From contig SYNW01000032.1 of the NCBI GenBank assembly GCA_005805045.1, positions 1 through 43,605 on the forward strand: a DNA stretch of 43,605 nucleotides, read 5' to 3'. The stretch is from Actinomycetota bacterium. GTDB taxonomy: Bacteria > Actinomycetota > Acidimicrobiia > Acidimicrobiales > Ilumatobacteraceae. The translations under genes and the position numbers were made by a program. The notes beneath the pieces were generated by a model, which did no database searches, was not told the DNA's origin, and worked only from the letters and a program-made list of their open reading frames with translations. Each line of letters starts with the position of its first letter. Position 1 is the first letter of the stretch. Positions 6,445 to 25,291 of the stretch are shown piece after piece.

Positions 6445-7077
6445 TTATTCGCTCTTTTGTTCCGCGGGTCTCACACCATGACCCAGTTCGCCACTCCATG
6501 CGACGACTCCCGTGAAACTGGCGTCGCCCGACGCGGCAGTTGCGCGCATCCAACCAGAAGTGTTTTTGTCTTCGCCTTCGCGCCAGTCTTCCCATTCAAG
6601 TTGTTGTGGATTGCCGGTGAGATCAACCAGCAGTTCGTTCTTCGTGTAAATCGCATCTTGACGATTGGTGAAAGAAAACTCGAACAGTTTTGTTTCGGTG
6701 ATTGCCTCAGTCGGACAAGCCTCAACACAAAGGTCGCAGTGAATGCAGCGAAGATAATTAATCTCATAGATCCAACCAAAACGCTCACCGGGTGATGTCG
6801 GCGATTCTGGGTTGTTGTCAGCGCCGCGAACATGAATGCACTTGGCAGGACACACCGCTGAGCAAAGTTCGCAACCGATGCACTTCTCCATGCCGTCTTC
6901 ATAGCGATTGAGCACGTGACGACCATGCAATCGCTCGGGCTTGTCAATCTTCGCATCCATCTTCTCGGCGTTGCGCTTTTTGCGGCGAAACATGCGGCCG
7001 CCCGAATACTGAGTAGTCACCCGATTCTTTTTGCCGTGCTGGCGAAAAGTAACTGCGAATCCCCCGAGGTAACCCAT
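6445..7077 (-). CDS. nuoI: NADH-quinone oxidoreductase subunit I (2x[4Fe-4S])
   Basis: Two ferredoxin-type motifs, [12 protein letters not shown] and [12 protein letters not shown]. Its ATG shares 1 nt with the nuoH stop. Confidence 0.92.
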
Positions 7078-14490: not shown

Positions 14491-15075
14491 TCAACGCTGT
14501 CCGATAACTACGGGTGTAGTCGTCCCCGCCGGAACTTCTTGGATACGGACTTGCGCGCCCGCACCAGTTGTGTCGCGACGGCGCATGATCTCACCGTCTT
14601 CGATCAACTGGTGCAACGTTTCAATTGCGTGAATCAAAGTTTCGGGCGTAGGCGGGCAACCAGGTGCATAAACATCAACCGGGACAATTTGATCTACGCC
14701 TTGAACGATCGCGTAATTGTTGAACATTCCACCACTGCTGGCGCACACGCCCATTGAAATGACCCACTTCGGTTCCATCATCTGGTCATAAACCTGCCGC
14801 AACACCGGCGCCATCTTCTGGCTGACTCGACCAGCGACGATCATGATGTCGGCTTGGCGCGGTGAGGCACGAAAAACCTCCATGCCAAATCGAGCCAAGT
14901 CGTAGTGGGCTGTTCCCGCCGTCATCATTTCGATGGCACAACACGCAAGACCAAAGGTCGCGCCCCAACTCGACCGCGATCGTGACCACTTCACAAGATC
15001 TTCAACGCGGCCCGTCAAGAAATTATGTTCAAGACCACCCAGACCATCATCGGCAACATTTTGGATCAAGCCCAT
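14491..15075 (-). CDS. nuoB: NADH-quinone oxidoreductase subunit B (N2 cluster)
   Basis: Motifs [22 protein letters not shown] and APGCPPTPE. The track starts at TTG 15078. The adjacent ATG at 15073-15075 shares 1 nt with the nuoA TGA. Confidence 0.92.
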
Positions 15076-15551
15076 CAAACAGAAACTTTCTCTTGCTCGC
15101 GACCATCGAGCCCCACCCGACGAATTGTCGTGGAGGATGATCGCGATGCAGACAAGATGTCTCCATCAGCTTCGACCAACTTGCGCGCTTTTTTGACAGG
15201 ACCCCAGTCGAGGGCGCCGCGCGCGACGACATAGACGAACGCCACGAAGAAAACCGCGCTAAACGCGACTAACTCCCAGAAACCGTAAGACCCGAGCGAC
15301 TGGCTCGCCACAGCGTATGGATAAGCAAAAATGATCTCGATGTCGAACATGATGAACAACATCGCCACAACATAAAAACTCACCGGAAACCGTTCTGGTG
15401 CTTCGAGGCTGGGCACGATCCCGCATTCGTATGGGGCTTGCTTTGCTTCACTCGGCCGACGTGGTGCCAACAATTTAGACGCGAGTAATGAGCCAACTCC
15501 GAACAAGACTGCCAAAACTGCGAGAACAGCAATCGGAAGATACTGACCCAC
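15075..15551 (-). CDS. nuoA: NADH-quinone oxidoreductase subunit A (with about 35-aa C-terminal extension)
   Basis: Three TM helices and the PYECG motif. GTG start lies 5 nt downstream of the preceding gene's stop. Confidence 0.88.
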
Positions 15552-15556
15552 TGTTG

Positions 15557-16381
15557 TTAGCTCTTCGCTGGCGAACGTGAACCAACATCAGCACTTAGAT
15601 TCTTGCGCAAGCGCAGATCACGAGTGTGCAGCAATCGACAAAGCAACAAGAAAATGATCGTTGAACCAATCGTGATAAAAATTGACGGCTGACGCTTGGA
15701 GCCGAGATCGCGCAACATATATATGTATCGGCGAGGCTGAGTTTCATCGATTTCTGGTCGAGCGGGTGCACGACCCGGCTCGGTGCGCTGTGGCACGATC
15801 GATGCAACCTCGACTATTGAATAATGCGGATCATGAAAGAATGCCACGAAGTCGAGCGACTCGCTGATCTTCGGCCATCGTTCACCACCTTTGTCATAAA
15901 CGGCAACCGAGACATACTCACCAAGCGCAAACTCTTCTGCTTGATTTTGAATGATTTCATCGGCAGACGCAACTGCTTGACCACGTCGTGGATCGGACTC
16001 TTGCAACAACAACCATCCATCACCCTGCAAAGCAATGGATGCCGTAGCCGCGTCGGCAACTGCATCACCTGATGGTTGCATCGGCATCAAAATAATCTCC
16101 GCATCGTCCAACAAGTCCGGACTTCTGACGATGGTCGTCGGCTCGCCGGGCTGCCAAGTTGGAGCGCGACCCGTCAGGCCAATGCCATATATCCACCAAA
16201 TACTCCCCATAATCGCCATCCAACCAAAAAACCCGGCAACCACGACGAGAAACCCAAGTCGCGCGCCCAAATTCGTGCCAACCACCAAATAGGTACCGCC
16301 GATTAATACGCCAACCGAAATTGCAACAATAATGATGCCACGAAGTTGCGGTTCGAAATTTACGGCGAGCAGAGCGAGCAC
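15557..16381 (-). CDS. Membrane protein of unknown function (2 N-terminal TM, extracytoplasmic domain, C-terminal TM), last gene of the b6c-type module
   Basis: 274-aa ORF with hydrophobic helices IIIVAISVGVLIGGTYLVV, LGFLVVVAGFFGWMAIMGSIWWIYGIG and SIFITIGSTIIFLLLC. I recognise no catalytic motif. It sits 2 nt after the cytochrome c gene and 5 nt before nuoA. Confidence 0.6.
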   Translation of the reverse strand: MLALLAVNFEPQLRGIIIVAISVGVLIGGTYLVVGTNLGARLGFLVVVAGFFGWMAIMGSIWWIYGIGLTGRAPTWQPGEPTTIVRSPDLLDDAEIILMPMQPSGDAVADAATASIALQGDGWLLLQESDPRRGQAVASADEIIQNQAEEFALGEYVSVAVYDKGGERWPKISESLDFVAFFHDPHYSIVEVASIVPQRTEPGRAPARPEIDETQPRRYIYMLRDLGSKRQPSIFITIGSTIIFLLLCRLLHTRDLRLRKNLSADVGSRSPAKS

Positions 16382-16383
16382 TC

Positions 16384-17424
16384 TTAGAGACCTCTCACAT
16401 AATCAATAACGGCGACAATTTGCTCATCTGTCAATACCAAACCAAAAGCTGGCATTCGACCCGAACCTTGACCTTGCTGACCGTACCTCTTGCCGAGTTC
16501 GCTTCCGCCCTTGATGAACTCAATCATTTCGTCACGTTGTGGAAACTGTCTGACTGCTGATCCACCGGTTAAGTTCGGACCGAAAGCGCCACCGCCCGTA
16601 ATTTCTGGCTCACCGTACGACCAACCCTTGGTATGACAGCGCGCACATGAATAATTTCCGCTGCCTAAATCTAAATTGAACAACGCTTCTCCGACAGATG
16701 CGTAAGTCCCCGCCTTGACAAGTCGCTCGGCCTCGGCTTGGATCTCTCGTTGTTTTTCTTCGGGCAATTTGCCATTTTCGTCACGCGGAATTTCAATGCT
16801 CTTGACATATTCAATGACCGTTTGAATTTGCTGTTCGTTCATCGGGCCGCCACCGACCAAACCCCATGCCGACATCGGCGAGAAAGGTCGACCATATTCA
16901 AGGATGAATCGAACTTCTTCTTCGCTGTAACGATAGAAAACCGTGTTGATTGCTGGTGCCTTCCAATTGACTTGTTTTACTTGACCAGTCTTTGGATCTG
17001 AAATCGCATAAGACGCGACGCCGCCACCACCCTTCATGCCACCGTGGCAACCGGCGCAGTTATAACCGCCATCGGCCGTCGTGGAAAACAACCCGGTACC
17101 CCAAGTTTCAAATTGGTGTTGAAATTCTTTTTCGGCACCGACCATGCGACCGGGTTCAAGAATCCAATAGAGCGGCAGCGCAATCGTCGTGACGGCAAGA
17201 CACAACAGACCAATCAACTGCGTACGCTGAATTTTTTCGCCCTCAAGTCGCTCGTCGTCATAATAAGGTTTGCGGTTTGCGGCAAGTTTGATCTCTGCAC
17301 CAATCTCGCGCTTCGACGAGCGCAGATTGCCCAGGCCGTAGATAACCCAACCCAAAACCGAAACAAGCAAAATCACCCAGGCGATCGTGGTGGTTGTATC
17401 GGCGAGCATCACTGCGAGATTCAC
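16384..17424 (-). CDS. Membrane-anchored dihaem c-type cytochrome
   Basis: Two CxxCH motifs (NCAGCHGG and SCARCHTKG) and two N-terminal TM helices. GTG start abuts the Rieske stop; an ATG at 17409 is an alternative start. Confidence 0.85.
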   Translation of the reverse strand: MNLAVMLADTTTTIAWVILLVSVLGWVIYGLGNLRSSKREIGAEIKLAANRKPYYDDERLEGEKIQRTQLIGLLCLAVTTIALPLYWILEPGRMVGAEKEFQHQFETWGTGLFSTTADGGYNCAGCHGGMKGGGGVASYAISDPKTGQVKQVNWKAPAINTVFYRYSEEEVRFILEYGRPFSPMSAWGLVGGGPMNEQQIQTVIEYVKSIEIPRDENGKLPEEKQREIQAEAERLVKAGTYASVGEALFNLDLGSGNYSCARCHTKGWSYGEPEITGGGAFGPNLTGGSAVRQFPQRDEMIEFIKGGSELGKRYGQQGQGSGRMPAFGLVLTDEQIVAVIDYVRGL

Positions 17425-18276
17425 TTAGTGTCCACCCGTTCCGCCGACACAGTGGGGACCTTCTGCTTCTTGACCAGATGTGTTCGTTCCAATAGGTGGA
17501 CCACCAAAAACTGTGCCCGTATCGATGACAACCATTCCGTTATTCACTGAAACTCCAAAACGATCCATGCCTCGCGGTGCTGGTCCACCTTTTTTTTCAC
17601 CAACACGGTTGTATTGCGACCCATGGCACGGACATTCAAACCATTGCGATGTTTTGCATTCAGGCACACGACAACCAAGATGTGGACACTTCTGATACAG
17701 CGCGACTATTCCAGAGGTCATCCCGCTGAACACTGGTGCTTGCCCGGCATAAATTGCTTCAGCCTTGGAAATCGATTCTTTTGGATATTCGGTTACCCAT
17801 GATCGAGCCTCAGGCAAATATAGGAAGCCCTTGTTGGCGCGAATCTTGCCGACAACCTCTTCGAGTTTTCCTGCGTTGATTTTCGAACCGAAGCCACCGT
17901 CGGCGCCTTTCCACAAAAAGGCGATTAGCGCGGCGGCGAAACCACCAAGGCTCGCGCTCATCAAAGTCACTGTGGCGCGATTCAAAAATGCTCGACGCGA
18001 TTCATCAACTGCTTCTCGGTCTGGCATAACCCACGGTTCAATTTCGGCGGGCGGTATGACCGCAACTGCGGTGCTCCGCGAAGCCGAGGCTTCAGCCTCA
18101 ACATCGCGACGCGCGTTGCGTGATGACTTTTTCGCATCGCGATCACGCTTGCGAGTCTCACGCGACAACACACCCACGCCGCTCATGTCGGAACGCCGAC
18201 TTGCCGTGAGCACAACGCCCAAGCCGAGCACGGCAAGAACAGCAATCGCAATGGTGATGATGGTCGTCGAGTTCAT
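17425..18276 (-). CDS. Rieske [2Fe-2S] iron-sulfur protein
   Basis: Rieske boxes CPHLGC and CPCHGSQY. N-terminal TM helix, then an internal SRRAFLN twin-arginine motif before a second hydrophobic helix. Confidence 0.9.
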   Translation of the reverse strand: MNSTTIITIAIAVLAVLGLGVVLTASRRSDMSGVGVLSRETRKRDRDAKKSSRNARRDVEAEASASRSTAVAVIPPAEIEPWVMPDREAVDESRRAFLNRATVTLMSASLGGFAAALIAFLWKGADGGFGSKINAGKLEEVVGKIRANKGFLYLPEARSWVTEYPKESISKAEAIYAGQAPVFSGMTSGIVALYQKCPHLGCRVPECKTSQWFECPCHGSQYNRVGEKKGGPAPRGMDRFGVSVNNGMVVIDTGTVFGGPPIGTNTSGQEAEGPHCVGGTGGH

Positions 18277-18291
18277 TTGAGTTTTATCCGA

Positions 18292-19011
18292 TCACAATTC
18301 GAAGAAGATACCTTCACGCCAAGGAAAGACGAAGTTGAAACCGGGCCCCCTGAAGAAAGAGCCAATAATTACGAGCACCGCCCAGAACATTAAGTGCACT
18401 GTAAATAAACCGGTCATGAACTTTCTGTCTTCTGGACGATTTGACTCGTTGCGATCCATGTACGGGGCGAACATCAGCACAATCAGACCCATGCCCGGAA
18501 TCGTCACACCAGCAATCATCGGGTGGAACATCGTCAGCAGTTCTTGCAATCCGAGAAAGTACCAAGGTGCTTTCGAAGGATTGGGTGTCTGATTGAAGTT
18601 TGCCGCCTGCAACAGCGGGGCGTTCACGAACCACGAAAACACAAAAGTAAACGCGGTGCACGCAAGCGCGGCAACAAACTCGATGCCCAACAAGTGTGGC
18701 CAGGTGTGCACCTTGTCAACTGGCACCGCTTTGACGTCTTGAATTGAACCTGATTTGACGACCGTCAACAAGCGTTGCGTGTGACCACCAGGTCCGGCCC
18801 CGAATGGCACGCCACTATTTGCTGGCGCTGCGACCACTACGCTGCCGACTTTTTCGGCAACTGCAACCGCACCCTTGTTTCGATTTAGCAAATCGCCCGA
18901 AATTCGCGAGTCGTCAGCCGCTGGCGCCGGCGCGGCTCCGCCCGCATCGGCGGCTGCTTTTTCGCGCGCTTCTTGAGCGCGCTTCAAAAGATGTTCTGGA
19001 ATGCCGGCCAT
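18292..19011 (-). CDS. Cytochrome b C-terminal half / subunit IV-like protein with about 100-aa cytoplasmic N-terminal extension
   Basis: Three TM helices and a PEWY-equivalent segment PNPSKAPWYFLGLQELL. Its ATG shares 1 nt with the stop of the upstream cytochrome b6-like gene (TGATG). Confidence 0.8.
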   Translation of the reverse strand: MAGIPEHLLKRAQEAREKAAADAGGAAPAPAADDSRISGDLLNRNKGAVAVAEKVGSVVVAAPANSGVPFGAGPGGHTQRLLTVVKSGSIQDVKAVPVDKVHTWPHLLGIEFVAALACTAFTFVFSWFVNAPLLQAANFNQTPNPSKAPWYFLGLQELLTMFHPMIAGVTIPGMGLIVLMFAPYMDRNESNRPEDRKFMTGLFTVHLMFWAVLVIIGSFFRGPGFNFVFPWREGIFFEL

Positions 19012-19796
19012 CAGAGGGGTCCTGAAATTCCGCCGTCTTTACGCACGCGCCAGAAATGGATCGCGAGGAAGATGACCGTTACGAATGGGAACAACAAAAC
19101 ATGCAACACATACCAACGCAACAAAGTTTCTGGACCAATTTCAACACCGCCCAGCAAAACAAAACGAACTTGCGAGCCAATAACTGGTGAGTAGCCCATC
19201 ATGTTGGTACCCACGGTTACTGCCCACAGCGCGAGTTGATCCCACGGCAACAAATAACCTGTGAATGAAAGCAGCAGCGTCAAAGTCAAGAGAATCACGC
19301 CGATTACCCAGTTGAACTCGCGTGGTGCTTTGTATGCACCGTGATAAAAGACTCGCGCCATGTGCAAAAATACGGTGAGCACCATCAAATGCGCGCCCCA
19401 ACGGTGCATATTGCGCACCATCAAACCGAAAGTCACCGAAGTATGCAGTGACTGAATATCTTGCCACGCGTTAGCCGATGTCGGGCGGTAAAAGAACATC
19501 AAGAAAATGCCGGTGATGGTCAGCAAAATAAACAAAAAGAAGCTCAAGCCTCCGAGACAAAGCGTGTAACTGACCTTTACCGCATGGCGCTTTACTTTGA
19601 CCGGATGCAAGTGATAGAGCACAGAGTTCATGACGACATAAGAACGATTTCTCGGCGAGTCCGAATAGCCCTTGCGGAAGATCGAACCTGGCCTGAAAAT
19701 CGAGTTCCAGGCTTGGCTCGACTGCGTCGTCTCATTGAGTTTGGTCACGCGCTGTTTAATCGTCGGACGAGATTTCTGCTCGATCATCTTTACCAT
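19011..19796 (-). CDS. Cytochrome b6-like protein (N-terminal four-helix half of cytochrome b)
   Basis: Helix-B His pair NMHRWGAHLMVLTVFLH. Helix-D His pair LHVLLFPFVTVIFLAIH has 14 residues between the histidines (b6 spacing). A Cys lies in TLCLGG at the position of the haem ci/cn-binding Cys. A GGAG ribosome-binding site precedes the ATG. Confidence 0.88.
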   Translation of the reverse strand: MVKMIEQKSRPTIKQRVTKLNETTQSSQAWNSIFRPGSIFRKGYSDSPRNRSYVVMNSVLYHLHPVKVKRHAVKVSYTLCLGGLSFFLFILLTITGIFLMFFYRPTSANAWQDIQSLHTSVTFGLMVRNMHRWGAHLMVLTVFLHMARVFYHGAYKAPREFNWVIGVILLTLTLLLSFTGYLLPWDQLALWAVTVGTNMMGYSPVIGSQVRFVLLGGVEIGPETLLRWYVLHVLLFPFVTVIFLAIHFWRVRKDGGISGPL

Positions 19797-19812
19797 TTAG
19801 TTTTCTCCGTTC

Positions 19813-20226
19813 CTAAAATCGCATGCCGTACGAATAGCCGTGGTTATTGGTTCGCATATGAGTTTCGCCCGTGGCTGGCGCAACCCCAACTTTGCCGAGA
19901 ATTATCACACCGGTTGGACAACGATCGACGCACAACGCACAACGTGTGCAAACATCATCATCAATAATGAAAACAACTTTGTCTGAAGGGTCTTCACCGG
20001 GCATCTCGGTGCCGCTTGACTCTGAGATTGCGTCCGGGCTGACCATGAAAATGCACTTCCACGGGCAAATGTCAACGCAACCTTCACACATGATGCACTC
20101 TGATTGATCGATGTGGATGAACTGCTTGGGCTTAACCGCCTTGTTCAAATACTCGGCATCTACCTCGACGAGTTGATAGTCGTCGGTATAAGGCATCATC
20201 GGCGGGTTTGCGTCGGTTTTTGCCAT
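19813..20226 (-). CDS. 2x[4Fe-4S] ferredoxin-like protein, probably cytoplasmic
   Basis: Motifs CIMCEGCVDICP and CTRCALCVDRCP. No signal peptide, TM helix or twin-arginine motif. It lies 16 nt upstream of the cytochrome b6-like gene. Confidence 0.85.
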   Translation of the reverse strand: MAKTDANPPMMPYTDDYQLVEVDAEYLNKAVKPKQFIHIDQSECIMCEGCVDICPWKCIFMVSPDAISESSGTEMPGEDPSDKVVFIIDDDVCTRCALCVDRCPTGVIILGKVGVAPATGETHMRTNNHGYSYGMRF

Positions 20227-20229
20227 CGC

Positions 20230-20706
20230 TCAACTCTTCTTCGTCAACGGACGACCATAACTAGACGAAACAACTTCTTTAGCTGTGACCACCCCGCGCT
20301 TTTGCCACCAACTGAACAGATAGATCATCAGGCCAATATAGAAAACGTGGATGACCACGACGATGATGTCACGAATTGCTTCGTAACTAATGGTGATCGG
20401 AAAGCTTCCACCAACGGTGTCGGACTTCAAAATGTTGAACGGCCCGTAGACGAGTTTGTCTTTTCGCCAACCCAATTCTTTGTCGGCGTGGTCGATGAAT
20501 TGGTGCGGCACAACACCGAACGCAAGAAACAATACGAGGAAGATGTAAGCGGATCCGAGCATCGCTTCACCCCAAGTTGCCTTTCGATCAAACTTTCGAC
20601 GTTGGCCGATCGGAATGACCACAAGACTCATGGCGGTGGTGACTACAAACGAAAACAGGAACGCTTGATTGACCCCTGGCCACCTGAGAATGTCTATTGC
20701 GAGCAT
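20230..20706 (-). CDS. Small membrane protein of unknown function, first gene of the b6c-type module
   Basis: 158-aa ORF with about 3 TM helices (FLFSFVVTTAMSLVVIPI, AYIFLVLFLAFGVV, IIVVVIHVFYIGLMIYLF). ATG start; its stop is 3 nt before the ferredoxin start. Confidence 0.6.
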   Translation of the reverse strand: MLAIDILRWPGVNQAFLFSFVVTTAMSLVVIPIGQRRKFDRKATWGEAMLGSAYIFLVLFLAFGVVPHQFIDHADKELGWRKDKLVYGPFNILKSDTVGGSFPITISYEAIRDIIVVVIHVFYIGLMIYLFSWWQKRGVVTAKEVVSSSYGRPLTKKS

Positions 20707-20944
20707 CGCTTGAGGGCTTGCCTTTCCTCGTAAAATCTGTTTTTAGCCTAGTCGGGCTGGCATTAAGCACGGTATTTGCAAGACGATTGTTGATGACTCG
20801 TTGGTCACAGAAGTTGCGCATCGCTCAACATTCATCGTCGCTGATGTGTCTTATTTTTTGGTTGTGCATTCGTGAACTTCTTAATCTCGACCTCGATGCG
20901 TCTAACCTGTTGAAAGATAGTTAGTAATCGATTCAAGGAGAATT

Positions 20945-21769
20945 GTGGCTGGAATACCCGAGCATCTACTTAAGCGGGCTCAAGAAGCACGCGACAAAGC
21001 AGCCGGCAAAACTCCTGCCGCGGATGCCGGTGAATCGACGCCAAATCTTCCCGCTAAAACATCTGAAGCCAAACCTGTGCCGGCCGCCCAAGTTGCGAGT
21101 GCTCCGCCACCACCGCCCCCAGATCCAAGTTACGTAGTCGCCGCCAACACACGAAAAAAGATTCCATTTTGGGCAATGGCCACTTTGAGTCTCCTGCCTT
21201 TTTGGGCACTGTTGTATGCCTTGTCGGTCAAGCCTCAAGAAAAAACGGTTGAAGGTCCGCTTGCAATAGGCGCAGCAGTTTACGGAACGTGCGCAGGATG
21301 TCACGGTGTGGCCGGAGCCGGTGGCGCTGGACGCGCTCTGCACCAAGGTGAAGTCTTGAAAACTTTCCCAAAGATCGAAGACATGTTGAACTTCGTCTAC
21401 ACAGGTTCGCAAGCGTTTGTTTCTGCCGAGATCAAAATTTATGGCGACCCTAATCGCGAAGGTGGGGCGCACGAAACGCTTTCATACAACGGCAACCCGA
21501 TGCCGCAACAAGGAGAAAAATACGGTGGCGGTCTGACCGACGCAGAAATTCTCGGAGTCGTATGCCATGAAAGATACGAAATCGGTGGTGCCGACCAAGA
21601 GAGCGAAGAATGGAAGAGCGAGTTCGAGATGTGGTGCTCGCCTGAGTCTGAAATATTTCAAGGTCTCGAAAACGGATCAGTGAACTACGACAATCTTGCT
21701 GAAACATTTGCAGCGTTGCCGATGCCGCCGACGAATGTCAGCACAGACCCCCGCCCCTCAGGAAAATAG
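20945..21769 (+). CDS. Membrane-anchored monohaem c-type cytochrome
   Basis: Single CxxCH (TCAGCHG) with a downstream NGNPMPQQG candidate Met ligand. It has a cytoplasmic N-terminus, a Pro/Ala-rich linker and one TM helix (IPFWAMATLSLLPFWALLYAL). GTG start is preceded by AAGGAG. Confidence 0.8.
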   Translation: MAGIPEHLLKRAQEARDKAAGKTPAADAGESTPNLPAKTSEAKPVPAAQVASAPPPPPPDPSYVVAANTRKKIPFWAMATLSLLPFWALLYALSVKPQEKTVEGPLAIGAAVYGTCAGCHGVAGAGGAGRALHQGEVLKTFPKIEDMLNFVYTGSQAFVSAEIKIYGDPNREGGAHETLSYNGNPMPQQGEKYGGGLTDAEILGVVCHERYEIGGADQESEEWKSEFEMWCSPESEIFQGLENGSVNYDNLAETFAALPMPPTNVSTDPRPSGK

Positions 21770-21832: not shown

Positions 21833-23062
21833 GTGCTCGTCATCGGTGGAGGGCCAGCCGGTGCAGCTGCCGGATTTTGGTTGGCGAAACTTGGACACGA
21901 TGTAACGATTGTCGAGCGCAAAAAGTTTCCACGTGAAAAAACCTGTGGTGACGGTCTTACACCGCGTGCCGTGAAACAGCTGGACGACATGGGGCTGAGC
22001 ACAGGGCTTGAAAAATTTCATCGCTACGAGGGTCTTCGCGCAACTGCCCATGGCATCGCTCTCGAACTGCAATGGCCGACTCATCCGATTTACCCGCGCT
22101 ACGGCTATGTTGTGCGGCGCCGTGAACTTGACATGATGGTCGCTCACAACGCGCGAAATGCCGGGGCAAAACTTCTTGAAGAACATGAAGCCGCGGCGCC
22201 GATCACGGAAAAGGGTTGCGTTCGTGGCGCAATGATCACCAACAAAAAAGACGACACGACCGTTGCGCTTCACGCCGACTATGTGGTCATCGCCGATGGT
22301 GCGAACTCTCGCTTCGGCCGAAGCATGGGCACCTCGCGAGAGAGGGCTTGGCCCTACGGCACTGCGATTCGCACATACTGGCAGAGTCCAAGGCACAAAG
22401 AACCGTGGATCGAATCGGCGCTGGACGTAAAGGACCGCAACGGAAAGTCAATGCCGGGATACGGATGGATATTTCCGGTCGGCGACGGAACCATAAATAT
22501 CGGTGTCGGATTACTGTCGACATTCAAGAACTTCAAAGATGTCAACACATCTCACCTGCTCGACTCATATGCGCACATGGTCGCCGACAAATGGGAGATT
22601 GATCCGACCAAACCAGAGTGCAAAGCCACCAGCGGAAAGATTCCGATGGGCGGATCAGTCGGGCCAAAAGTTGGACCTACCCACATCGTGATTGGCGATG
22701 CTGCCGGCAGCGTCAACCCATTTAATGGTGAGGGCATCGACTATGCCTACGAGACTGCGCATATGGCTGCCGAGGTGATCCATGATGCGTTGATCTCGGG
22801 CGATGCGACGGCATTGAAGCGTTACGAGCAACTAATCGAAGACGAGTACGGTCAGTATTTTAAAGTGGCGCGACTTTTTGCGCGAATAATTGGCAAACCA
22901 ATTTTGATGCGCGAACTTTCGCGAGTGGGTATTCACAGCCGAACTTTGATGGAGTGGGTGTTACGAATCATGGCCAACTTGTTGCGACCAGACGAGATTG
23001 GGCCGGCCGAAGCCGCATACAAGGCGGCCGCAGCAATCGTCCGTCTATATCCCAACGCCTAA
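21833..23062 (+). CDS. Geranylgeranyl reductase family flavoprotein (menaquinone side-chain reductase-like)
   Basis: N-terminal FAD fold VLVIGGGPAGAAAGFWLAKLGHDVTIVERKKFPREKTCGDGLTP and about 409 aa in length. GTG is the only start available after the upstream in-frame stop. Confidence 0.8.
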   Translation: MLVIGGGPAGAAAGFWLAKLGHDVTIVERKKFPREKTCGDGLTPRAVKQLDDMGLSTGLEKFHRYEGLRATAHGIALELQWPTHPIYPRYGYVVRRRELDMMVAHNARNAGAKLLEEHEAAAPITEKGCVRGAMITNKKDDTTVALHADYVVIADGANSRFGRSMGTSRERAWPYGTAIRTYWQSPRHKEPWIESALDVKDRNGKSMPGYGWIFPVGDGTINIGVGLLSTFKNFKDVNTSHLLDSYAHMVADKWEIDPTKPECKATSGKIPMGGSVGPKVGPTHIVIGDAAGSVNPFNGEGIDYAYETAHMAAEVIHDALISGDATALKRYEQLIEDEYGQYFKVARLFARIIGKPILMRELSRVGIHSRTLMEWVLRIMANLLRPDEIGPAEAAYKAAAAIVRLYPNA

Positions 23063-23726: not shown

Positions 23727-24413
23727 TTAAACAGGAACCGCGTTTGACTCTTGCTGATTCTTTGAATCAGTCTGCTCAATGCGCATTTGCTCGTAATAAC
23801 TCAAGATTTGTAGTTCGACACCCAGATCAACATTGCGCACCGAAACACTGCTCGGGATTGCCAAAACGATCGGCGCAAAGTTCAGGATCGAAGCAATACC
23901 GGCTTCAATTAGCGCATCGGCCGCCGACTGTGCCGCGGAAGTTGAAGTTGTAATCGCGCCGATAGTCACTTCTAAATCTCTGACAAGTTTTTGCAAGTTG
24001 CGCACATCCGAAACTTTCAGCGCACCGGTCAACTGACCAATCTTTTTCGGGTCGTTATCAACAATGCCGACTACCGGAAACCCGCGTGGCGCGAAACCAC
24101 CAAACTTTGCGAGCGCACAACCTAAATTGCCAGCACCAACGACAACGACATTCCACTCTCGCATCAAGCCAAGTTCACGCCTGATTTGATGAATCAAATA
24201 CGTGACTTCATAGCCGACACCGCGAGTTCCGTAACTTCCAAGATACGAAAGATCTTTTCGAACCTTGGCCGCATTCACTCCAGCCAATGCGGCAAGTTCA
24301 TCACTCGAAAAACGAACGACATTTGTTGCGTGCAAATTGTTTAGGATTTGCAAATATACGGGCAGTCGGGCAACCGCTGCATCGGGGATTCTGCGTCTTT
24401 GTAATTGGGTCAT
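23727..24413 (-). CDS. rex: Redox-sensing transcriptional repressor Rex
   Basis: Winged-helix block RLPVYLQILNNL...DLSYLGSYGTRGVGYEV followed by a Rossmann motif VVVVGAGNLGCALA. I start at ATG 24411-24413 (MTQLQRRRIP). The track's upstream extension to 24503 adds 30 non-conserved residues and would cover the operator. Confidence 0.88.
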   Translation of the reverse strand: MTQLQRRRIPDAAVARLPVYLQILNNLHATNVVRFSSDELAALAGVNAAKVRKDLSYLGSYGTRGVGYEVTYLIHQIRRELGLMREWNVVVVGAGNLGCALAKFGGFAPRGFPVVGIVDNDPKKIGQLTGALKVSDVRNLQKLVRDLEVTIGAITTSTSAAQSAADALIEAGIASILNFAPIVLAIPSSVSVRNVDLGVELQILSYYEQMRIEQTDSKNQQESNAVPV

Positions 24414-24430
24414 GGCCTCAGGGTAGGGCT

Positions 24431-24448
24431 TCGTGCAGAATTTCACAA
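24431..24448. promoter_or_regulatory. Rex-operator-like (also CRP-like) palindrome
   Basis: TCGTGCAGAATTTCACAA compared with the Streptomyces Rex operator consensus TTGTGAA-N4-TTCACAA. The right half is perfect and the left half matches 5/7. It sits 17 nt upstream of the rex ATG and 48 nt upstream of the divergent membrane-protein ORF. Confidence 0.5.
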
Positions 24449-24496
24449 AGTTAAACCACGAAAGACATGGATTTACCAAGATTTTGAACGCGACTT

Positions 24497-25291
24497 TTGG
24501 CACCCAGTTATCGTGCTTGCGTGCTGCAAACCCAAATTATTGCCGAAGTTGACCAGTTAAATTCGGTTTTGGCCGGCAGTGCGGCGCTTGTCGCCAGCGC
24601 TTTTGCCCTCAGCACTTTTGACCGCTGGCATCGACGAAACCAGCCCCATGAAATGGCGTGGACGATCGCCATGATTTTGTTCGCGATCGGCTCAGGGGCA
24701 CTGTGGTGGGCCGAAGCAACTGGTTGGTCGTTATTCGTATTTCGAATCTTTTTCCTCGCGGGTGCTGTACTCAATGTGGCGTGGCTTGCGCTAGGCACGA
24801 TTTATTTATTGGCAAACAAAAAAATTGCCGACCACTTGCGCAACGCACTAATTATCTTGAGCGCCTTCAGCATCGGCGTGATCATCTCGACGCCGACCAA
24901 ACGAGAGATCGTTGACGGTGAATTTCCCGCTGCCCGAGAATTGTTTGGCGTCCTACCGCGAGCCATGGCAGCAATCGGCTCTGGGATACCGGCCTTAGTT
25001 ATCCTGATCGGCGCATTCTGGTCGACCTGGCGCGTATTGAAATCTCAGGCACCAAATCTGAACTCGGCGATTCTCAGAACGGTGACTTCACCCAAACGGC
25101 TCGCCGTTGGCAATTTGTTGATAGCCCTCGGCACGATCGTGCTTTCGGCCAGTGGCACACTTGCTGGTCGGCTCGGCAAAGATCGTGCGTTCGCCGTAAC
25201 ACTGCTGGTCGGCTTGTGCATTTTGTTTATTGGATTTTTAGTTTCCAGCAACTCAACGCGATCGCAACAACGACTACCTGCCGACGATTGA
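24497..25291 (+). CDS. Polytopic membrane protein, unknown function
   Basis: 264-aa ORF (TTG start in the track; the true start may be slightly downstream) with about 6-7 hydrophobic helices. Divergent from rex. Confidence 0.55.
   Translation: MAPSYRACVLQTQIIAEVDQLNSVLAGSAALVASAFALSTFDRWHRRNQPHEMAWTIAMILFAIGSGALWWAEATGWSLFVFRIFFLAGAVLNVAWLALGTIYLLANKKIADHLRNALIILSAFSIGVIISTPTKREIVDGEFPAARELFGVLPRAMAAIGSGIPALVILIGAFWSTWRVLKSQAPNLNSAILRTVTSPKRLAVGNLLIALGTIVLSASGTLAGRLGKDRAFAVTLLVGLCILFIGFLVSSNSTRSQQRLPADD

Follow-up and report, generated by a model that had tools for sequence, protein, structure and literature searches.

Rieske/cytochrome b complexes are among the best-studied energy-converting enzymes. 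In a 43,605-nucleotide (nt) stretch of DNA from a freshwater or estuarine Actinomycetota bacterium of the class Acidimicrobiia and family Ilumatobacteraceae (contig SYNW01000032.1, assembly GCA_005805045.1; the whole stretch is called the window here), the genes of a split cytochrome b complex are accompanied by three further genes. These encode a 137-amino-acid (aa) ferredoxin (Fd137) and two membrane proteins of 158 and 274 aa (M158 and M274). On balance, we lean slightly towards these proteins being lineage-specific extra subunits of a b6c-type menaquinol:cytochrome c oxidoreductase, both in the Acidimicrobiia and in a second branch. The first-pass annotation of this DNA had proposed them as extra subunits made together with the complex. 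As to that proposal, gene order and gaps in both branches give good support to conserved co-production with the b6c core, while subunit status itself is probable, on the genomic grounds of order, gaps and constraint.

Organization of the module in the window

The module runs on the minus strand, from M158 to M274, and is bounded downstream by nuoA:

20230-20706, minus strand: M158, 158 aa, ATG start, first gene of the module (open reading frame, ORF)
19813-20226, minus strand: Fd137, 137 aa, ATG start, 2x[4Fe-4S] (ORF and Pfam)
19011-19796, minus strand: cytochrome b6-like protein (b6), 261 aa (Pfam Cytochrome_B, NCBIfam cytb_ExtP)
18292-19011, minus strand: subunit IV-like protein (SUIV), 239 aa (Pfam Cytochrom_B_C)
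17425-18276, minus strand: Rieske [2Fe-2S] subunit, 283 aa (Pfam/NCBIfam and motifs)
16384-17424, minus strand: membrane-anchored dihaem cytochrome c (cyt c346), 346 aa (CAGCH and CARCH, Pfam)
15557-16381, minus strand: M274, 274 aa, GTG start, last gene of the module (ORF)
15075-15551, minus strand: nuoA, 158 aa, downstream boundary of the module, opening a complete nuoA-N operon (Pfam/NCBIfam)

The genes are packed closely. The M158 TGA is separated from the Fd137 ATG by 3 nt, and 16 nt lie between the Fd137 TAG and the b6 ATG, ahead of which stands GGAG. Downstream, b6 and SUIV overlap by 1 nt, SUIV and Rieske are 15 nt apart, Rieske and cytochrome c abut (0 nt), and 2 nt lie between cytochrome c and M274. 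Re-reading the ORFs showed the coordinates, lengths, cysteine motifs and spacings first given for Fd137, M158 and M274 to be correct throughout. A promoter and terminator scan of positions 14800-21100 gave counts close to the shuffle expectation and carried no information.

Conservation of the gene neighbourhood

The Acidimicrobiia were scanned with one genome per GTDB species and the ferredoxin alignment as query, which found a relative in at least 596 genomes; synteny was read from the best 80 of these. Wherever the contig reached, the order was GGR(-) cyt c274(-) | M158 Fd137 b6 SUIV Rieske cyt c M274 nuoA, in which GGR is a MenJ-like geranylgeranyl reductase and c274 a second cytochrome c. 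Median gaps were 3 nt from M158 to the ferredoxin gene, 15 nt from there to b6 and 0.5 nt from cytochrome c to M274. Fd137, M158 and M274 are real genes and not chance ORFs.

A second scan, of metagenomes and seeded with divergent ferredoxins, returned 80 loci of a more distant branch. Their ferredoxins are 32-46% identical to Fd137 of the window, and two of the clusters are named "Actinomycetota bacterium". The order ferredoxin-b6-SUIV-Rieske-cytochrome c was retained in every locus with enough flank. Furthermore, the M158 hidden Markov model (HMM) matched the ORF directly upstream of the ferredoxin gene in 30 of these, and the M274 HMM matched the ORF directly after cytochrome c in 26. Profile-to-profile alignment with hhalign related M158 to the distant upstream ORF (98.2% probability, E 3.8e-14, 105 columns) and M274 to the distant ORF after cytochrome c (99.0% probability, E 3.7e-18, 71 columns). 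For M274 the likeness is limited to the N-terminal helix hairpin, and the large loop domain diverges. The ferredoxin gene and both membrane genes are therefore kept beside b6 and Rieske in both branches, in loci with enough flank; the first-pass annotation had named the lack of such conservation as the finding that would speak against it.

The same comparison bears on whether the three proteins belong instead to complex I, or to a junction between complexes I and III, the module being fused to the nuo operon. M274 lies 5 nt before nuoA in the window, and the median of this gap is 4 nt over 59 loci from 59 genomes; the core of Fd137 resembles NuoI, and the distances of Fd137 and nuoA are correlated (r 0.55). 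Since the module runs straight into nuoA, complex III-type and complex I genes apparently form one very long transcription unit in the Acidimicrobiia, and an M274-nuoA co-transcript is probable. However, the nuo operon has a NuoI of its own, and the fusion of module and nuo genes is absent from the distant branch. There nuoA never follows the module and was detected in only 2 of the 80 loci, upstream and on the opposite strand, while the ferredoxin, M158-like and M274-like genes stay with b6 and Rieske. Because nuoA never follows the module in that branch, Fd137, M158 and M274 follow the b6c genes and not complex I, and we regard their assignment to complex I or to such a junction as highly improbable.

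Titles of the best 80 Acidimicrobiia loci are nearly all Acidimicrobiia or unclassified Actinomycetota, with about eight discordant. The titles Bifidobacterium breve, Ferrithrix thermotolerans DSM 19514, Gammaproteobacteria and Phycisphaeraceae occur at L006, L008, L011, L016, L034, L035, L065, L070 and L081. Metagenome-assembled genome records with such discordant titles and an Acidimicrobiia-type module are probably mislabelled or mis-binned assemblies.

The b6c core

The b6 protein matches Pfam Cytochrome_B with an E value of 2.6e-46. Its residues 75-261 align with residues 30-215 of PDB b6 chains, so that it carries an N-terminal extension of about 45 aa and is longer than cyanobacterial b6. 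It is of the four-helix type: the His pairs NMH/FLH and VLH/AIH align to the His ligands of PDB b6 chains, and the b6-type 14-residue His spacing is present in helix D. The first-pass annotation had pointed to a cysteine in b6 as predicting a haem ci, and this residue was confirmed, as LCLGG (CxGG) in the window and as xCLGG in 150 of 150 linked b6 genes with available sequence. The CxGG cysteine would provide a possible attachment site for a covalent haem ci/cn.

SUIV is recognized by Pfam Cytochrom_B_C at residues 137-218 and has the Qo motif APWY (KAPWYF in the window), which recurs in all 117 linked SUIV sequences available (117/117). Its N-terminal extension of about 100 aa is predicted to be cytoplasmic and opens with MAGIPEHLLKRAQEAR. 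The Rieske protein has the boxes CPHLGC and CPCHGS together with a motif, SRRAFLNRA, that resembles a twin-arginine translocation (Tat) signal. It also has an extra N-terminal membrane helix (residues 5-23) and then a highly charged linker of about 70 residues, which precedes the Tat-like motif and the usual anchor helix; this linker would add another cytoplasmic segment to the complex.

The features that define a split-cytochrome b Rieske complex were thus all found, namely the His pairs, a separate SUIV with APWY, CxGG, and the Rieske boxes with a c-type cytochrome. The core carries the full set of b6-type redox motifs and represents a b6c-type complex from a clade that has already been named. 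Kao and Hunte (2014; PMC4122944) described an "APWY clade" of split cytochromes b with CxGG, listed Ilumatobacter as a member and stated that none had been biochemically characterized as of 2014. The module shares with this clade the four-helix b6 and SUIV, the APWY Qo motif, CxGG and the Ilumatobacter membership. By our own equation, the clade is probably subfamily G of Dibrova et al. 2017 (PMC5600118). The passages of PMC4122944 and PMC5600118 retrieved by keyword mention neither a ferredoxin nor additional membrane subunits in actinobacterial members. A literature search for a ferredoxin subunit of actinobacterial b6c complexes likewise found no description, many subscription papers being outside its reach. 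The first-pass annotation mentions neither this clade nor the continuation of the module into the nuo operon. The core clade already has a name, and the ferredoxin and the two membrane proteins are probably undescribed extra subunits of it.

The ferredoxin and its constraint

Fd137 holds CIMCEGCVDICP and CTRCALCVDRCP, which are two CxxCxxCxxxCP motifs. The eight cluster cysteines are invariant in the family alignment, and there is one extra cysteine. The protein scores above the Pfam thresholds of Fer4_10 (41.9 bits; threshold 25.5), Fer4_7 (40.0; 27) and Fer4_21 (38.7; 35). Other features are an N-terminal segment specific to the family, DDYxLxEVDxxYL..VKPKQF, an insertion of about 30 residues that separates the two cluster motifs and, in the Acidimicrobiia, the C-terminal tail HGYxYGMRF. 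Fd137 is acidic, with an isoelectric point (pI) of 4.5, and has no hydrophobic or membrane segment. Reading of its N-terminus revealed no twin-arginine or other export signal, which bears out what the first-pass annotation had said of it; with neither a membrane segment nor an export signal, Fd137 is predicted to be cytoplasmic (on the n side).

Homologues of Fd137 fall into 2063 clusters at 90% identity, the best 120 of which are 74-94% identical to it. They bear the names "ferredoxin" and "4Fe-4S binding protein" and come from Ilumatobacteraceae and Acidimicrobiales. At E<1e-30, a HMMER search of 1.84 billion representatives delimited a compact family of 37 clusters (50% identity), most of them fragments, with few full-length divergent members at 34-50% identity.

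The closest PDB sequence relatives of Fd137 are the polyferredoxins FwdF and MvhB and the complex I subunits NdhI/NuoI. With NuoI/NdhI and FwdF/FwdG, which give its best PDB and NCBIfam similarities, it shares the two CxxCxxCxxxCP motifs and the insertion of about 30 residues, and it is 38% identical to the window's NuoI across the 71-aa cluster core. However, it remains under every NCBIfam cut-off, far so for the NuoI model TIGR01971 (39.6 bits against 113), and differs by its own N- and C-terminal signatures and its other genomic partner. Identification of Fd137 as NuoI/NdhI was rejected on that score and on the presence of a bona fide NuoI, separate from Fd137, at 6445-7077 within the nuo operon. 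Natural fusions of the ferredoxin with b6 were not found either: long stop-to-stop ORFs around the ferredoxin gene in GC-rich loci are read-through of non-coding sequence, and seeming fusions in the protein library are frameshifted sequences.

Over 30 loci in which all genes are complete, mean Kimura distances were 0.13 for b6, 0.20 for Fd137, 0.25 for SUIV, 0.36 for nuoA, 0.50 for cyt c346, 0.51 for Rieske, 0.55 for M158 and 0.70 for M274. Fd137, second only to b6, is thus nearly as constrained as the catalytic b subunit. In a mirror-tree comparison, Fd137 grouped with SUIV, b6 and nuoA (r 0.55-0.59), and M158 and M274 grouped with Rieske and the cytochromes c (r 0.67-0.82). The pairs are non-independent and confounded by rate class and shared phylogeny, and GGR is a poor control, so this grouping is at most weakly suggestive of a split between the n side and the opposite (p) side, which it would fit.

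These data also bear on the possibility that Fd137 is a free soluble ferredoxin that is merely co-transcribed, for example as donor to the MenJ-like reductase or another cytoplasmic enzyme; M158 and M274 might or might not be subunits in that case. Fd137 is a small, acidic protein without a membrane segment, a 77%-identical homologue (P0056) stands alone, away from b6 and M158, and the reductase is a constant neighbour in the Acidimicrobiia. An archaeal geranylgeranyl reductase uses a dedicated neighbouring ferredoxin. In the distant branch, on the contrary, the reductase was detected in 4 of the 80 loci, always 6-7 kb from the ferredoxin gene and never adjacent to it, whereas the ferredoxin gene lies directly upstream of b6 in every locus with enough flank. 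Across genomes, M158 stays 3 nt and b6 about 15 nt away from the ferredoxin gene, conservation above that of SUIV and nuoA is unusual for an exchangeable carrier, and plain 8Fe ferredoxins (those with two [4Fe-4S] clusters) lack the N-terminal extension and the insertion. We therefore consider a free soluble carrier unlikely, though it deserves some weight.

The membrane proteins

M158 has three hydrophobic helices and is basic (pI 9.8). It has 796 homologous clusters at 90% identity, all "hypothetical", the best 120 listed being 68-100% identical, and its alignment of 34 sequences contains 55 invariant columns. M274 consists of an N-terminal helix pair and one C-terminal helix; its 2172 homologous clusters (90% identity) are likewise all "hypothetical", and the best 120 listed are 64-100% identical. 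The invariant part of M274 is its N-terminal hairpin, GTNLGARLG...FGWM..MG.IWW.YGIGL. Topologies were derived from the charge distribution by the positive-inside rule. M158 is predicted to be N-out/C-in, with its basic loop 1 (GxRRxxDRK..TWGE) and the invariant C-tail (WWQKRG...SxYGRPL) in the cytoplasm. In M274 the hairpin loop and the C-tail would lie inside, and a domain of about 165 aa would face outward.

Scans of M158 and M274, together with ten distant homologues, against Pfam and NCBIfam at E values up to 1 gave nothing meaningful. Against PDB sequences, which included mycobacterial and corynebacterial supercomplex entries, the M158 profile had no match at E <= 10 and the M274 profile only noise at E > 0.1; the noise in these searches consisted of an unrelated YEATS domain and a LOV2-DARPin fusion. 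Across the Pfam, NCBIfam and PDB profile searches, none of the three proteins matched a known assembly factor or a subunit of another complex, a result that the first-pass annotation had named as capable of overturning its proposal.

One or more of the three could nevertheless be biogenesis factors, acting in haem ci attachment to CxGG or in the insertion of the Rieske cluster or the c haems. System II cytochrome c biogenesis genes (ResA-like thioredoxin, CcdA/DsbD_TM, ResB and CcsA) adjoin the distant module at L141 4346-7470 (-), L159 3579-7329 (-) and L164 12375-13367 (+), and every linked b6 has the CxGG cysteine. NapF is an example of a cytoplasmic maturation protein of the ferredoxin type, and no haem ci attachment machinery is known outside oxygenic phototrophs. 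On the other side, M158 and M274 match no known biogenesis-factor family, since they match no Pfam family at all; Pfam includes CCB haem ci factor families. Moreover, the genes lie inside the structural operon with gaps of the translational-coupling type, and conservation as strong as that of Fd137 is commoner in redox subunits. A role in biogenesis thus appears quite unlikely to us.

Proposed role

Several observations weigh against reading the three proteins as subunits. Gene order alone cannot tell subunits from co-expressed partners or assembly factors, and both large scans were anchored on the ferredoxin, so that their counts cover ferredoxin-bearing loci only. Rate covariation gives a modest signal for Fd137 and does not amount to an independent test. 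The AlphaFold2 monomers of M158 and M274 are poor (predicted local distance difference test scores of 63.6 from a 34-sequence alignment and 60.0 from a 29-sequence alignment, respectively); a Foldseek search of the PDB with these models gave no match at E < 0.1 and, because of the quality of the models, fold searches of the two proteins carry no weight. In the distant loci, no dehydrogenase or flavoprotein gene is conserved alongside the module. Finally, the isolated homologue P0056, which has no M158 or b6 nearby, is the sole exception seen to module synteny. It is encoded at L001 66-479 (JGI 3300034166), at L002 1475-1888 (JGI 3300042560) and on a 187-kb contig of sample 3300059473. On the latter it sits between a soluble ORF and a sigma-factor gene, in surroundings with two sigma-70 genes, DnaJ, an SNF2 helicase, a pol III delta-like protein, HIRAN, Toprim and a giant fn3/Big_1 protein. 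P0056 may represent an additional copy or a gene that has moved; location on a phage or plasmid is unsupported, with no relative in IMG/VR, INPHARED or PLSDB.

If the three proteins are subunits, M158, Fd137, b6, SUIV, Rieske, cytochrome c and M274 would be produced from one tightly coupled transcript, which in the Acidimicrobiia would continue into nuoA-N. The most economical reading of Fd137 would be an extrinsic n-side subunit. Its pI of 4.5 stands against 9.8 for M158 and 10.4 for b6 and, because these charges are complementary, the acidic Fd137 is probably held at basic n-side surfaces; candidates are the loop and C-tail of M158 along with the extended N-termini of b6 and SUIV. The two [4Fe-4S] clusters of Fd137 might then wire the haem bH/ci pair, located at the Qi pocket, to the cytoplasm. 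The likeliest direction would be entry of low-potential electrons and menaquinone reduction at Qi, as has long been suggested for ferredoxin and haem cn in cyclic flow through b6f; the alternative, which our data do not distinguish from it, would be output of a low-potential electron from bifurcation at Qo. M274 would be anchored by its helix hairpin, with its variable domain exposed on the p side next to those of Rieske and cytochrome c.

Electron exchange between Fd137 and haem ci is speculation, as is a ferredoxin-input or bifurcating role. It is doubtful, in our estimate, that the main complex III of the Acidimicrobiia and the second branch has a permanently bound 8Fe ferredoxin on its cytoplasmic face that is wired to haem ci. 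The Acidimicrobiia include many uncultured freshwater, marine and soil members. Were this arrangement real, the complex would be a ferredoxin-level entry into the menaquinone pool, a hard-wired form of the disputed route from ferredoxin to haem cn. In the other direction it would be a site of quinol-driven bifurcation that exports low-potential electrons, as proposed for anammox bacteria, here beside a complete complex I. If Fd137 is a true n-side subunit, the complex would also be only the second kind of Rieske/cytochrome b complex with a cytoplasmic redox module, after anammox, and the first in bacteria with a complete complex I. Furthermore, it would offer a simple bacterial system for electron exchange between an Fe-S centre and haem ci, a question relevant to photosynthetic cyclic electron flow. 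Three widespread families (about 800-2200 clusters at 90% identity), so far "hypothetical" or generic "4Fe-4S binding", can be tentatively tied to complex III.

Comparison with known systems

Elaborated Rieske/cytochrome b complexes of anammox bacteria were the analogy drawn in the first-pass annotation, and it is documented. In Kuenenia, the complexes Kuste4569-74 and Kustd1480-85 include a cytoplasmic nicotinamide adenine dinucleotide (phosphate) [NAD(P)] oxidoreductase, an Fe-S flavoprotein of the n side, with a proposed diversion of low-potential electrons from Qi (PMC12954380). They are the nearest concept, sharing a Rieske/cytochrome b core and a cytoplasm-facing redox module. The anammox complexes add the NAD(P) oxidoreductase and multihaem/HAO-like (hydroxylamine oxidoreductase-like) subunits, whereas the present module adds only the 137-aa 8Fe ferredoxin and two membrane proteins beside a complete nuo operon. 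Pfam and NCBIfam detected no flavin or NAD(P) domain in the module proteins, and the only nearby flavoprotein is the divergent MenJ-like reductase. The candidate identity as an anammox-type complex with an NAD(P) oxidoreductase was rejected, there being no flavin/NAD(P) Fe-S subunit. Cytochromes b fused to 4Fe-4S or MvhD domains have also been reported (PMC4122944), and a proposal that haem cn takes electrons from ferredoxin is on record (PMC5600118). The anammox complexes and these fusions provide precedents for n-side Fe-S additions.

Cytochrome b6f shares with the module the b6/SUIV core and the CxGG haem site. In b6f, however, ferredoxin and ferredoxin-NADP+ reductase (FNR) are transient or loosely bound, while the present operon has a ferredoxin-like gene as a fixed member. 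Actinobacterial QcrCAB (CIII2CIV2) is similar in its membrane-anchored dihaem cytochrome c and in a Rieske protein with extra N-terminal helices, and b6 is weakly similar to QcrB. It differs in that QcrB is unsplit, and identification with QcrCAB was rejected on scores of 116 against 500 bits for bc1_QcrB_actin and 22 against 275 bits for bc1_QcrA_actin.

The closest b-type relatives are the Geobacter proteins ExtO/ExtP/ExtQ (NF040969, NF040970). The b6 protein scores 305 bits against the ExtP equivalog cut-off of 290, and b6 and ExtP therefore share a b-type subfamily; SUIV, in contrast, reaches 57 bits against the ExtQ cut-off of 150. In Geobacter, the ext cluster combines multihaem cytochromes (ExtKLMNS) with a porin (ExtI) and a rhodanese and has no ferredoxin (PMC5877670). 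An Ext selenite/tellurite operon was rejected, with ExtQ under its cut-off and no multihaem, porin or rhodanese match among the scanned window ORFs. Since the ExtP model is exceeded without an ext cluster, automatic annotation could misname b6 as a "selenite/tellurite reduction operon b-type cytochrome".

Neighbouring genes and a shared peptide

Upstream of the module, three further genes were recorded:

20945-21769, plus strand: monohaem cytochrome c274, membrane-anchored, 274 aa, divergent from the module
21833-23062, plus strand: MenJ-like geranylgeranyl (menaquinone) reductase (GGR), dependent on flavin adenine dinucleotide, divergent from the module (Pfam/NCBIfam)
23727-24503, minus strand: Rex redox-sensing repressor, close to the module

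GGR and cytochrome c274 are conserved neighbours in the Acidimicrobiia, c274 being found in the Acidimicrobiia only. The remainder of the window consists of housekeeping genes. In another locus (L003 618-6498), Rex is followed by a hemA-hemC-hemD-hemB-hemL haem-biosynthesis cluster, and the proximity of Rex and hem genes points to a larger neighbourhood of respiratory and haem genes in the Acidimicrobiia.

SUIV and the divergent cytochrome c274 share the N-terminal peptide MAGIPEHLLKRAQEAR, with the pattern M[A/T][G/E]IPEHLLKR[A/S]. Their coding segments, 18951-19010 (-) and 20946-21005 (+), form a 60-nt inverted repeat with 82% complementarity. The motif IPEHLLKR opens both proteins in 60 Acidimicrobiia loci and does not occur in the distant branch. 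It resembles a short docking motif and is predicted to be cytoplasmic. Within the N-terminal extension of SUIV it is duplicated in 4 genomes, and the window has a degenerate second copy, SRISGDLLNRNKG.

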